In this document: positions 17,450 to 21,524 of the stretch, piece after piece
Layout of the letters: each line of letters opens with the position of its first letter
Position numbering within the stretch: position 1 is the stretch's first letter
Virus record (IMG/VR): IMGVR_UViG_2663762839_000009
Span: 1 to 21,524 of that record
Origin: a virus
Lineage: Duplodnaviria; Heunggongvirae; Uroviricota; Caudoviricetes
Reading direction: 5' to 3' (one strand)
Length of the DNA: 21,524 nt
Translations under genes and position numbers: made by a program
Notes under the pieces: model-generated
What the model saw: the letters and a program-made list of their open reading frames with translations, nothing else
Database searches by the model: none
What the model was told of the DNA's origin: nothing

Positions 17450-17677
17450 TTAGCTGACTTGTTTCGCACCAACAGAACGGCATATTCCGCTGTAAACTTC
17501 TGTCGCACCTTCGCGATCAAGTCCGGCAGATATCACCATTCGTGTGCGGTCATTAAATTCAAAAAGTAAATCGCCACATTCTTTATTTTCGGCCAGTGAA
17601 ATCACCTTCACGTTATCGAAATTAACCAGGTAAAAGCGTCCGTAAATATCAGGAATATTAAATACCGCCATAATCAC
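17450..17677 (-). CDS. Hypothetical small early protein (75 aa)
   Basis: ORF starting 4 nt inside the end of the B gene (translational coupling). Confidence 0.45.
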   Translation of the reverse strand: MIMAVFNIPDIYGRFYLVNFDNVKVISLAENKECGDLLFEFNDRTRMVISAGLDREGATEVYSGICRSVGAKQVS

Positions 17678-18615
17678 ACCTGTGAGAGTAATTCAGGGTT
17701 GGTATAAACCTCTTTAAAGGCCGCATTAATATGTTTTTCTGTCAGCGCCGCGCCTTCACCGCTGGCGGTGAGCCACGCCTGGTTAAGCGTATGTGTCAGA
17801 ACGCGTAACGCTCCCGGCTTTTCAGCGATAGCCTGCATGACGGCCAGCTCGGCCTCACCACTGATCCCCCACGCCATGGCAATGGCCAGCACATCCGCCT
17901 TTTTGGCCTTGCGAAGTTGTTTTGTACGGGCAAGACGGCTGAACAGGCGCGATAAATCATCAAAGGCGCGGCGTCCACCTTTAAACAATCCGCGCGGGTT
18001 ACCAATAAGCACCATCCCGATCCCCGTGGCGTCCTGAATTGCCCGGAGTTGCTCCAGACCGTCAATACCAAGATGATCCGCCTCATCCACAATCACCAGT
18101 CCACGCGTTCCCATCAGGCGACGGCGGATGGCGCGGGATAATGCCCCTTTGTTCGCGCGGGTGTAATCAATCCCCAGCGCATCGGCCAGCTCCAGCAGAC
18201 ACTCCGTGACGCTGGAGTGCGCGGGTGACAGGGTGATCATCCAGGTGTTTGGTTGCTCCTGGCAGTAATTACGGGCAGTGGCCGTTTTACCCACACCCGG
18301 TACGCCCACAATAACGTTAATACAGCCCATCAGGCGAACCGCCTGAAACAGTGCGCGCAGCTCCTGGACTGTCTGAGTTTCCACAAACTGCGGCGGTTCC
18401 GGCAGTGCGCTTTGTTTATTCCAGTTCTCATACCAGGAGCGCAGGGAAGCAGCCACAGCAGCGTTATCGCCTTTATATTTTCCCTTACGGAAAGCCGATA
18501 ATGTGCCGTCGGAAATTCCCGCCTCTCTGGCGATGGCATACTGCGTCAGTACGCCGCCATCAATAAGTTCATCAATGGTCTTGATTACATCGTTAATATC
18601 GGTCATATTATTCAC
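17674..18615 (-). CDS. MuB-like transposition target-capture ATPase
   Basis: 313-aa ORF with N-terminal HTH-like region and Walker A motif GVPGVGKT; located directly downstream of the transposase gene as in Mu. Confidence 0.85.
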   Translation of the reverse strand: MNNMTDINDVIKTIDELIDGGVLTQYAIAREAGISDGTLSAFRKGKYKGDNAAVAASLRSWYENWNKQSALPEPPQFVETQTVQELRALFQAVRLMGCINVIVGVPGVGKTATARNYCQEQPNTWMITLSPAHSSVTECLLELADALGIDYTRANKGALSRAIRRRLMGTRGLVIVDEADHLGIDGLEQLRAIQDATGIGMVLIGNPRGLFKGGRRAFDDLSRLFSRLARTKQLRKAKKADVLAIAMAWGISGEAELAVMQAIAEKPGALRVLTHTLNQAWLTASGEGAALTEKHINAAFKEVYTNPELLSQV

Positions 18616-18688: not shown

Positions 18689-20446
18689 TCAGGCCAGCGG
18701 ATCACTTTCTTTTAATTTCGCTTCGAGCAGTTGCAATCCCCGCTGGAAATTACGCTCGTATTCTTCATCAGGTTCATCGTCAGCGACCGGTTGCTGAACG
18801 GTCACCGTATTACCCACAGGGCGGTATATGTTTTCCAGCCAGGGCTCCTGCGGCTTGTGCTCCAGCACGTTGACAACCTCATCCTCGACATCACGGATTT
18901 TTTCCTCTGCGCGTTTACGCATGCCTTTAAGGCGCTGCTGCTGTTTGTAGTATTCCGCGCTGACAGGGAAGGCTTCGCGTTTATTGCCGTCCCATACCGC
19001 CTCGCAAATCACGCTGCCATCCGGGCGGCGCACGGTAATTCGTTCGGCATCATGAATGTCATAGCTGATAAGTACCTTACGGCCATGCTCGTCACGCAGC
19101 TCGGGCGCGTAGTAAATATTATTCAGCCAGCGTATTTCACAGCGTCTTACAGGGCGCTCCACCATCGGCCGGAACATATCCCGCAGTTCAACATCGGACA
19201 GCCATTCAATTTCCGTGTCCTCTTCCGCCAGGCGTTTTTTTCTGAACTCCGCCGGGCTGTAATGTTTACCGTTCGGCTTCATGGGTAATTCATCGTGCGG
19301 CCGGTTGTTGTACCACTCAACACCGTCACGAATGGCATCAATCAGTTCAGACCAGGACGGTAAATCACGCATCGCTGACTGCTGCCGGGCGTTCAGCCGT
19401 TTGCCCTGTTGCAGGGCACTGAATGCCGAGCGTAAATCGCGGTTGGTTTTACGTAACGTCTCGCGATCTGCTCCTTTCCCGAAATAGGTGCGGTATTTAC
19501 GGGCTATGCGCATCGGTAATGTGCGGTTAAGCCGTTCGATAATGCCCCGTCCCTGCGGATTACCGGCAATCCCTGTCGGGTGATTAATCCCCAGTCGTGG
19601 CAGTACCCGGCCTTTTTGTTTCACCACTTCCGGCAGTTTCTTCATTGCGCGGCGAATGGTGTCATAAGAGGGCATGATATCGAGCATATAAGGCTCATCA
19701 GCGTGCCGGTGCTGCCATTCAGCAACAAAATCCTCGTAAGCCTCGGTCATTGGTCGGCCGTTTGACTGGCGATACTGCGCCAGAAATTCGGGCAGCCAGT
19801 TAATATCTTCGGCTTTTATTTCCTGGCGTTTACCCGGTGCCAGTAAAAGCAGGCGTTCAGCGGCGTTCTGTGCCTTGTTAAAGGCCGCAATCCAGCGTTT
19901 CAGCGTGATTTCACTCAACGCGCGGCTGTTTCCCTTTTTGGCGTTCGCCGTCTCAACCATTGCCACAATGCGCTCGTCCAGTTGTGATCGTGCCAGGCTG
20001 TTAACGAGGAACCGGATAGCCTTAGCGCAACTAAAGCCGGGTTGTTGCGCGATTTTCAGCACCTCGCTGACGATCGCTATTCGTGCCTCTGCCACTTTAC
20101 GTTGGTTTTCAGTCAGGGCATTGAGGCGTTCGACCATCAGTTGGGGTGATCCGCGATATGCCTCCACCGCATCAACCACGGCAGGTGAGCGTCTGGCCTT
20201 TGTCACCACCGGAGCCGGTGATTCATCGGCTTTTTGCGTCATCAGTTGCAGGGCGTAGCGTTCACGTAATGCCTGCTGCGTCACTTCAGGTAAACAGTCG
20301 ATGCTGTATTCAGTTGCTTTAGAGCCTGAGCGACGACGGGAACAACAGCTTTTCCCTTGTACGTAACGTTGTAATGCCTGGCGAATACCTTTTGTTGTAG
20401 CAGGCATTCCGGGCGCGCCAATCAGTTCTTTTGCAATGACATACAT
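18689..20446 (-). CDS. MuA-like transposase
   Basis: 585-aa ORF following ner. Contains integrase-core-like motifs (...GNPQGRGIIERLNRTL... and ...WYNNRPHDELPMKP...) and a C-terminal region resembling the MuA C-terminal domain (...RPDGSVICEAVWDG...IYRPVGNTV...DDEPDEEYERN...). Confidence 0.8.
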   Translation of the reverse strand: MYVIAKELIGAPGMPATTKGIRQALQRYVQGKSCCSRRRSGSKATEYSIDCLPEVTQQALRERYALQLMTQKADESPAPVVTKARRSPAVVDAVEAYRGSPQLMVERLNALTENQRKVAEARIAIVSEVLKIAQQPGFSCAKAIRFLVNSLARSQLDERIVAMVETANAKKGNSRALSEITLKRWIAAFNKAQNAAERLLLLAPGKRQEIKAEDINWLPEFLAQYRQSNGRPMTEAYEDFVAEWQHRHADEPYMLDIMPSYDTIRRAMKKLPEVVKQKGRVLPRLGINHPTGIAGNPQGRGIIERLNRTLPMRIARKYRTYFGKGADRETLRKTNRDLRSAFSALQQGKRLNARQQSAMRDLPSWSELIDAIRDGVEWYNNRPHDELPMKPNGKHYSPAEFRKKRLAEEDTEIEWLSDVELRDMFRPMVERPVRRCEIRWLNNIYYAPELRDEHGRKVLISYDIHDAERITVRRPDGSVICEAVWDGNKREAFPVSAEYYKQQQRLKGMRKRAEEKIRDVEDEVVNVLEHKPQEPWLENIYRPVGNTVTVQQPVADDEPDEEYERNFQRGLQLLEAKLKESDPLA

Positions 20447-20447
20447 A

Positions 20448-20696
20448 TCATGACGCCTTTCTCATATAGCTCTTAACCTGGTATCGACTGGGCCAGATTT
20501 CTTCAGGTGATACCCCAAGAGCATCAGCAATTATTTGCTGATACGGTCGGCAAGGAGTACGTAATACGCTTTTCAGCGAATCCCTGCTGTAACCAGCCTT
20601 TAAAGATAAAGAGCGCAGTGATAAGCCAGCCATGTGTAAGCGCGCCTTGATGATTTCAGGCGGCCAATCGTGATCTGAAACTTCTCTTCTACTCAT
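20448..20696 (-). CDS. ner: Ner-like DNA-binding regulator
   Basis: 82-aa ORF (...DWPPEIIKARLHMAGLSLRSLSLKAGYSRDSLKSVLRTPCRPYQQIIADALGVSPEEIWPSRYQ...) recognised as Mu Ner / E. coli Nlp family; AGGAAG Shine-Dalgarno; first gene of the early operon. Confidence 0.85.
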   Translation of the reverse strand: MSRREVSDHDWPPEIIKARLHMAGLSLRSLSLKAGYSRDSLKSVLRTPCRPYQQIIADALGVSPEEIWPSRYQVKSYMRKAS

Positions 20697-20886
20697 ACTT
20701 CCTCTATTCTAAAAAGTTACCCGCGCGGATATTCGTGCGGATATCTGTACGGGTAAATAATGCATCACCAAAAATACCAAACCAAGGTATTTTTGGTATT
20801 TTGGCTAATTTTTGCTTTTATCCTTATTTTTCAATTGGATAAATAGAAAGAAACCTTTCCTTAGAAAAGCACCAAGAGGTATCTTT
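20697..20886. promoter_or_regulatory. Divergent early/repressor promoter-operator region
   Basis: 190-bp AT-rich intergenic region between divergent ner and repressor genes. Contains a perfect 12-bp inverted repeat ACCAAAAATACC-n7-GGTATTTTTGGT (20767-20797), direct repeats GCGGATAT at 20725-20732 and 20737-20744, and an enclosing TTACCCG/CGGGTAA inverted repeat (20717-20723 and 20750-20756). Confidence 0.6.
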
Positions 20887-21417
20887 ATGTCGCAGGGAAA
20901 AGAACCTGTTATTGAACGTATTGGAATGCTTACAAAGCGCTACCCTTCAAGAAGTGCAGCTGCCAGAGCGTGGGGAATCAATATCAACACATTAAACAGC
21001 TATTTCAAGGGAGGACAAACACAACCAGCCCCCAGAGAAAGTATCCTTATACGAATTTCTGAAAGTGAAGGCGTTAGTCTTGAGTGGCTTAAAGAGGGCA
21101 AGGGTGAATTACCAAACGATATTGGTATTTATGGTAATTTTGGTTGTTCTGGTGATAAGGGAGATCAGCTTACACAGATGCTTTCATTCCTTACGAAAGA
21201 CGAACGAGAACAGTTAACCAATCTCCTTGCTCGCAAAGGTGTAGAGACGGTTCTGACACTGCTGAATAAAGAAAACCAAGATTTATTACAACTAGAAGGC
21301 AGGAAGCGCCTGGCTGCGTTGATGATTGTAGATATGCCAGACGATTGCGTCAGAGAGATTTTGGAAAAAACCGAGACAAGTAGGCAATCAAATCCGGTAG
21401 AATCTAAAGCGGGTTAG
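20887..21417 (+). CDS. Putative prophage repressor with CI-type (phage 186 CI-like) HTH
   Basis: Start ATG at 20887 with AAGAGG Shine-Dalgarno (the ORF track starts at 20812). N-terminus ...SRSAAARAWGININTLNSYFKGGQTQPAPRESILIRISESEGVSLEWLKEGKG resembles the CI-repressor HTH domain; divergent from ner as the Mu c repressor is. Confidence 0.6.
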   Translation: MSQGKEPVIERIGMLTKRYPSRSAAARAWGININTLNSYFKGGQTQPAPRESILIRISESEGVSLEWLKEGKGELPNDIGIYGNFGCSGDKGDQLTQMLSFLTKDEREQLTNLLARKGVETVLTLLNKENQDLLQLEGRKRLAALMIVDMPDDCVREILEKTETSRQSNPVESKAG

Positions 21418-21524
21418 TTTGGCGAGGCTGGCCCGTATGTTAGTTGCCATATAGATTTAATGAAGTTTTAAACGCTTTAAAAAGTTGAGATCGCAGTATC
21501 AAAAGTTTTGCCGATTTTAGAATA

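Follow-up and report, generated by a model that had tools for sequence, protein, structure and literature searches.

In bacteriophage Mu, the textbook example, the repressor and the transposase have a DNA-binding domain in common and are rivals for a single operator/enhancer. Three operators built from repeated half-sites occupy the gap between the Mu repressor gene and ner, and the enhancer lies on the repressor side of this gap (O1–O2), away from the Ner site. Coliphage 186 provides a second point of reference, with flanking sites and distant auxiliary operators. Within the Ner family, the Edwardsiella nucleoid-associated regulator EnrR is a monomeric protein with the PF13693 fold that binds as two closely packed monomers, side by side, on one short palindromic hexamer, CTATAG (PMC9023278). 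It binds AT-rich DNA globally and uses an N-terminal minor-groove arm (PMC9023278). For Mu-like prophages of the Sp18 type, a literature search returned no study of the switch and no binding, footprint or transcript-start data for the family. Sp18 itself has been described as a predicted-intact Mu-like prophage that is not induced by mitomycin C (PMC2669165).

The DNA analysed here (the window, 21,524 nucleotides, record IMGVR_UViG_2663762839_000009) is the left end of a Sp18-type Mu-like E. coli prophage. The right end of the window carries the following four genes.

17674–18615, minus strand: MuB-like ATPase (ORF listing and Pfam Phage-MuB_C)
18689–20446, minus strand: MuA-like transposase (Pfam Mu-transpos_C and HTH_Tnp_Mu_1)
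20448–20696, minus strand: ner, 82 aa, HTH_35 family (Pfam PF13693, 2.5e-19)
20887–21417, plus strand: repressor gene, 176 aa, XRE/CI-type HTH followed by a Mu c-type C-terminal domain

We read positions 20697–20886 as the lysis-lysogeny control region of this prophage, in which two separate palindromes, both predicted to bind proteins, are arranged around one early promoter (Pe). The repressor would bind site B over the −35 hexamer of Pe, and Ner would bind site A. We assign this reading a probability of about 0.7. The region, described as intergenic in an earlier sequence-only reading of the same DNA, measures 190 bp (34% GC) and exactly fills the interval from the start codon of ner (on the minus strand, with its end at 20696) to the repressor ATG (20887).

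This gap is 98.9% identical to that of prophage Sp18 of E. coli O157:H7 Sakai (genes ECs_4943 to ECs_4945), and Sp18-type gap sequence is present in 195 of 5426 complete E. coli genomes, Sakai included. The Ner protein of the window is identical to WP_001310454.1 (Sakai counterpart ECs_4944) and shares 39% identity with Ner from Mu and D108. The repressor corresponds to Sakai ECs_4943 ("regulatory protein") and is 98% identical to the Sakai-type protein. Relatives were also found in phages of Yersinia and Pseudomonas, as well as in several further genomes and metagenome bins of Enterobacterales (Pantoea, Sodalis, Symbiopectobacterium, Buttiauxella and others). The final 1.1 kb of the window matches, at 98.8% identity, Mu-like phages that sit within Stx phages, and there the element ends 143 bp past the window edge. 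The window edge lies about 143 bp short of the left end of the prophage, with the transposase end-binding sites outside view. Two near-identical Mu-like phages, L001 (LC727881) and LC727895, are annotated inside Stx1a- and Stx2c-converting prophages, and in LC727881 a 4-bp repeat is annotated as the insertion duplication. The lineage has therefore been mobile in the recent past. The transposase of the window comprises 585 residues, compared with 696 in Sakai ECs_4945. It has lost residues 282–391 in frame, with 97% identity on either side. The lost segment is the expected place of the integrase-type core, of which only weak rve_2 and rve_3 remnants are detected, and this copy of the prophage is probably unable to transpose.

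For comparison we assembled 32 distinct versions of the gap, drawn from E. coli variants, Pseudomonas phage VW-6B, Yersinia phage Tongde, 13 genome-collection loci and 20 viral contigs (individual relatives are cited by handles such as L001). In all 32, 213–216 bp separate the ner ATG from the conserved GKEP codons of the repressor gene. Since insertions and deletions are almost absent, positions could be compared column by column across relatives. Promoter and column-pair statistics were computed on 19 non-redundant relatives.

Repeats and promoters of the ner–repressor gap

The elements of the gap discussed below are these.

20717–20756, unstranded: site A, a 40-bp dyad of four hexamers with about 12-bp phasing (TTACCC 20717–22; GATATT 20728–33; GATATC 20740–45; GGGTAA 20751–56), axis at 20736/20737; putative Ner operator
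20757–20762, minus strand: −10 hexamer of Pe, CATTAT, the best conserved promoter column on either strand
20767–20797, unstranded: site B, a 12-bp inverted repeat with 7-bp spacer, centre at 20782; putative main repressor operator
20780–20785, minus strand: −35 hexamer of Pe, TTGGTT, 17-bp spacer to the −10 hexamer, located in the spacer of site B
20795–20806, plus strand: extra right-hand half-site GGTATTTTGGCT, overlapping the right arm of site B at a 9-bp offset
20793–20821, plus strand: candidate repressor promoter Pc, TTGGTA-17-TTTTAT, low confidence
20801–06 and 20825–30, plus strand: alternative Pc candidate, TTGGCT / TATTTT, weak
20682–87 and 20705–10: alternative Pc candidate in a Mu-like face-to-face arrangement, TTCTCT / TATTCT, weak
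20829–20841, plus strand: IHF-like core TTTCAATTGGATA, two mismatches to WATCAANNNNTTR

The perfect 12-bp inverted repeat highlighted by the sequence-only reading, ACCAAAAATACC (20767–78) and GGTATTTTTGGT (20786–97) with its 7-bp spacer, is present as claimed. The same is true for the outer inverted repeat TTACCCG (20717–23) / CGGGTAA (20750–56) that encloses a set of direct repeats. Outer and direct repeats together make up a palindrome with 19-nt arms that are 79% complementary. Among 5000 dinucleotide-preserving shuffles of the 190-bp gap, 5 contained a perfect inverted repeat 12 bp long or longer, and 27 contained 19-nt arms with at least 15 matches. The repeats in the gap therefore exceed chance. 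The earlier reading had also staked its case on conservation of the repeats in related elements, and all elements are indeed kept in position across the 32 distinct gaps. Only the direct repeats need a different description. The two copies of GCGGATAT do occur at 20725–32 and 20737–44, 12 bp from start to start (the repeats CGCGCGGATATT / CGTGCGGATATC span 20722–45), but they are specific to the lineage of the window, and relatives keep dyad symmetry instead. Most of them read GGATAAC and GGTTATC, an inverted pair, and we rejected GCGGATAT as a conserved direct repeat.

The conserved element at this place is the dyad that we call site A. Its pattern, TTACCC-N5-GATAWY-N6-GWTATC-N5-GGGTAA, includes the GCGGATAT repeats, and most relatives carry it as TTAYCC-N5-GATAAC-N6-GTTATC-N5-GGRTAA. 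In the lineage of the window the inner hexamers became GATATT and GATATC. Since GATATC is its own reverse complement, the window displays an apparent direct repeat. The symmetric column pairs in the hexamers of site A are 79–100% complementary across the 19 relatives, with the exception of one outer pair (37%), and in some pairs both members have changed (A-T to T-A, C-G to T-A). Complementarity is only 37–63% in the linking segments. Relative to Pe, site A extends from about −6 to +34, which leaves 20 bp up to the ner ATG. A comparable element is found in Mu, where a dyad with 18-nt arms and the core CTAAGT-N6-ACTTAG lies 35 bp upstream of ner and occupies the interval that separates the two annotated parts of the Ner binding region. 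In D108, a perfect inverted repeat whose 11-bp arms flank an 8-bp spacer lies 25 bp upstream of ner. Both dyads presumably coincide with the published Ner footprints of these phages. No single residue of the Ner recognition helix separates relatives with GATAT-type from those with GATAAC-type versions of site A; a K versus R/Q rule is broken by L028.

Site B brackets the −35 hexamer of Pe, so that at sequence level this hexamer is the spacer of the palindrome. The palindrome has been maintained by compensatory changes in relatives, as illustrated by ACGAAAAATACC/GGTATTTTTCGT in L007 and AAAGAAAC/GTTTCTTT in L012. The group of VL40 reads ACCAAAGA..CC at this site. In L046 (E. coli OkiPb01714) a 7-bp insertion at the place of window positions 20786–20806 has produced three GGTATTTT units in tandem within the right arm of site B, which looks like slipped-strand variation inside the site.

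Pe was found by a position-weight scan over the 19 non-redundant sequences. It scores a median of 8.0 bits, and 95% of these relatives reach at least 4.5 bits, whereas every other minus-strand column has a median of 4.5 or less. The predicted start is near 20750. Relatives carry TTGATT, TTGACA or TTTACA as −35 hexamer, and the promoter of L012 reads TTGACA-17-TATGCT. A standard promoter scan of the gap found nothing and missed Pe. The window version is weak, matching the consensus at 7 of 12 positions (TTGGTT/CATTAT), in part because of a C at 20782 that is specific to the window. All close relatives have T at this position, and the change converts the −35 hexamer TTGATT to TTGGTT. It may represent a promoter-down change in this copy.

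Promoter prediction on both strands, which the sequence-only reading had proposed as a check, thus gave a divided result: the early promoter on the minus strand is conserved, but the scan across relatives uncovered no convincingly conserved repressor promoter on the plus strand and none kept as well as Pe. The three Pc candidates listed above are correspondingly weak. Between site B and the repressor gene, 9 of 19 relatives match an IHF-like core with at most one mismatch at one alignment column, three of them perfectly, compared with a chance expectation of about 0.017 per sequence. The perfect cores are those of VL40, L016 and L033, in the same column as 20829–20841 of the window. In L007, L008 and L011, a near-consensus copy is found on the opposite strand about 13 columns away.

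The repressor and its predicted operators

The sequence-only reading had described a CI-type HTH instead of a Mu c-type N-terminal domain, and this description holds. A Pfam search found no match to the Mu c / MuA I-alpha domain (PF02316) in the window repressor, and the N-terminus fits CI/XRE families. In Pfam the protein stays below threshold for every HTH family, with one sub-threshold YfeC-like match, and a profile search of solved structures with its sequence returned marginal HTH matches only. In PHROGs the whole repressor corresponds to phrog_3037. Its N-terminal 70 residues match generic CI/XRE families (residues 20–78 at about 1e-5), and residues 91–174 match the Mu c family phrog_7148 (1.5e-10; reciprocal 1.1e-4). 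The N-terminus of Mu c matched the MuA family phrog_310 in the same search. The C-terminal halves of the window repressor and Mu c are 29% identical over 80 residues (BLASTP), and 17 of 35 repressor homologues match PF07022 (Phage_CI_repr). An AlphaFold model (mean pLDDT 80) consists of five N-terminal helices, a disordered linker (residues 83–89) and a helical C-terminal domain. The HTH spans about residues 8–70 and the Mu c-type helical domain about 91–174. With Foldseek, the N-terminal domain aligns with P22 c2, 434 repressor and Cro, and SinR at target-normalised TM-scores (TMt) of about 0.7, and more weakly with 186 CI (78 columns, TMt 0.26). The repressor is thus a chimera that joins an HTH of the PF07022/XRE type to a C-terminal domain of the Mu c type.

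Most relatives start the protein at MxKEP..., where they have ATG and the window has CTT (20860–20889). The Sp18 lineage, L048 and L050 start 27 nt downstream, at ATG 20887 behind AAGAGG. The family therefore contains two classes of start site. Three direct copies of GAAAG/GAAAAG-(A/C)ACC (20846–20856, 20864–20873 and 20897–20906) surround the ribosome-binding site of the repressor and its GKEP codons. Similar to the left half-site ACAAAAGAACC of some relatives, they may have arisen by coding coincidence or may be additional weak operators. Near the start of the repressor, the GAAAAGAACC repeats are possibly operator-like as well; we did not count them because they overlap the conserved GKEP codons. 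At the far end of the gene, a terminator-like hairpin (21409–21436) overlaps the stop codon and is followed by no T-run.

The pairing of repressor and site B can be examined in a natural swap. Five E. coli prophages (L004, L005, L038, L039 and L047) encode a Ner that is 100% identical to that of the window, together with a repressor of only 43–45% identity. Their site A is 93–100% identical to that of the window, and their site B has been rebuilt as AAAAGAAC...GTTCTTTT. Identity falls at about 20760, between the two sites. Among the relatives, half-site variants of site B group with the residues that start the predicted recognition helix (ININT, INVQT, INEGT, INVST, INIST). Over all pairs, the distance between versions of site B correlates weakly with repressor distance (0.20; 0.17 with Ner). 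Since this global correlation is weak, the case for site B as the site of the repressor relies on the swap prophages, on the position over the −35 hexamer and on distal copies of the half-site.

These distal copies are located inside the repressor gene.

21124–21144, plus strand: tandem half-sites GGTATTTATGGT and GGTAATTTTGGT (one mismatch each), candidate distal operator

The two half-sites, at 21124–35 and 21133–44, are 347.5 and 356.5 bp from the centre of site B and fall in the codons of the interdomain linker. Shuffling the repressor gene produced at least one such half-site in 66 of 20000 cases, and two in none of 20000. A copy of the own half-site (at most one mismatch) 334–367 bp from the centre of the main operator is present in 10 of 19 non-redundant relatives, and three additional loci (L050, L051 and L047) likewise have tandem own-type copies at this place. 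Own half-sites match the distal place better than foreign ones (a mean of 1.8 versus 2.8 mismatches), and none of 20000 permutations did as well. The copies use two codon phases and either strand, and the encoded peptides are unrelated (GIYGN, TKNTK, SKEPK, IPKTP and others). These patterns point to selection on DNA rather than on protein, and suggest that an oligomeric repressor may form a loop between site B and the distal copies. This candidate looping operator, composed of own half-site copies about 350 bp away in linker codons of the repressor gene, goes beyond what the sequence-only reading had described.

Alternative assignments and a proposed mechanism

Site A might be, or double as, a transposition enhancer for the N-terminal (I-alpha-type) domain of the MuA-like transposase instead of serving solely as Ner operator. 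The transposase keeps PF02316 (1e-6) and the repressor has none, so that an enhancer would be recognised independently of the repressor. GATAT-type sites co-occur with transposase N-termini of the form GMP...SRRR.G.KA[TI]EY. Moreover, the distance between versions of site A correlates with the MuA N-terminus (Spearman 0.36; partial 0.23 with Ner controlled). This correlation arises because ner and the A gene are always inherited together, and for the same reason site A could belong to the transposase domain. The correlation with Ner is nevertheless stronger (0.44; 0.35 with the MuA N-terminus controlled), and the correlation with the repressor is 0.05. Position and geometry of site A replicate those of the dyads that precede ner in Mu and D108, and the Mu enhancer is situated at O1–O2 and not at the Ner site. 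We consider the enhancer role unlikely. By these comparisons site A is a conserved dyad inherited with ner. Exchanging the two assignments, with the repressor on site A and Ner on site B, is less probable by a wide margin. Both sites are dyads suited to HTH proteins, and we infer both assignments. However, the swap prophages keep site A and change site B while Ner is identical and the repressor very different, copies of the site B half-site are embedded in the repressor module, and site A occupies the position of the Ner site in Mu and D108.

An RNA hairpin at site B, either a plus-strand intrinsic terminator or attenuator or a 5′ stem, would make a protein site unnecessary as an explanation for the 12-bp inverted repeat. 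A terminator scan does flag 20767–97, followed by ATTTTGG, the predicted folding energy is −15 to −16 kcal/mol (z about −4), and all relatives have a T-rich tract after the repeat. On the other hand, there is no upstream gene whose transcript would need to end there, the stem contains only four G-C pairs, and Rfam gives no match. The −35 hexamer of Pe lies in the loop and the predicted start of Pe lies downstream, so that the early RNA would not contain the repeat. The arms are conserved as sequence, beyond mere pairing, and lone half-sites recur at a distance with no partner, which would be senseless for a hairpin. We therefore regard the hairpin as very improbable, though a shade less so than the exchanged assignment. 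The two-palindrome switch, with the repressor on site B and Ner on site A, is the reading with which we continue.

A mechanism consistent with this layout would operate as follows. The leftward promoter Pe would drive ner and the genes A and B. A repressor dimer or higher oligomer would bind site B through its XRE/CI-type HTH and block RNA polymerase at Pe, which would maintain lysogeny. The Mu c-type C-terminal domain would oligomerise and may bridge site B to the half-sites at 21124–44. In many relatives the DNA between site B and the repressor gene is likely to undergo an IHF-type bend, and the corresponding site is degenerate in the window. By analogy with the dyads of Mu and D108, Ner would bind site A immediately past the start of Pe, and accumulated Ner would turn down early transcription. 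Because the DNA-binding domain of the repressor is unrelated to the N-terminal domain of the transposase, the Mu-style competition for operator and enhancer cannot work identically. A broader proposal would be that the chimeric repressor closes a loop of about 350 bp with the operator in its own gene, and that immunity, since repressor and transposase no longer have a DNA-binding domain in common, has been uncoupled from an enhancer located elsewhere, possibly at site A. We view this combination as tentative, with the odds against it.

Comparison with known switches

The earlier suggestion that a Mu-type ner/early promoter may be combined here with a different repressor specificity is in agreement with every test we ran. 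Judged from its sequence, the locus is a Mu-type switch with a domain-swapped repressor, and its predicted operator layout now has coordinates: Sp18-type prophages have retained a Ner, a promoter, and A and B genes of the Mu type, and have exchanged the DNA-binding head of the repressor. The resulting map of predicted targets (the −35 operator, the Ner-type dyad, the IHF-like site and the intragenic operator copy) can be used for footprinting, for immunity swaps and for studying enhancer function where repressor and transposase lack homology. It would also explain how several immunity types share one ner-A module. If the broader proposal is true, immunity and enhancer recognition have become separate in a Mu-like lineage that is widespread among enterobacteria.

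The closest likeness is to Mu and D108. The locus shares with them the divergent arrangement of repressor and ner, with A and B behind ner, an HTH_35-family Ner (39% identical), a dyad of 30–42 bp located 20–35 bp upstream of ner and immediately downstream of the early promoter, and an IHF-like site, here in many relatives. The C-terminal domain of the repressor is homologous to that of Mu c. Unlike Mu c, with the winged helix that it shares with MuA I-alpha, the window repressor has an XRE/CI-type HTH, and in place of the Mu arrangement there is one simple palindrome over the −35 hexamer of Pe and a candidate distal intragenic copy. The site sequences are unrelated to those of Mu and D108.

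In its five-helix HTH N-terminal domain, the repressor resembles 186 CI and other PF07022/XRE-type repressors (P22 c2, 434), and a palindromic operator over the lytic promoter, predicted here from sequence alone, is a further point in common with them. The possible use of far auxiliary sites a few hundred base pairs away recalls 186. In contrast to 186, P22 and 434, the C-terminal domain is of the Mu c type and neither a 186 CI oligomerisation domain nor an S24 peptidase, the partner regulator is Ner and not Apl or Cro, and the element is a transposable phage. With EnrR, finally, Ner has the PF13693 fold in common, and the CTATAG hexamer can be compared with GATATC in site A. Unlike that global regulator, Ner in Sp18-type prophages would be a dedicated switch protein with a putative operator of four hexamers.
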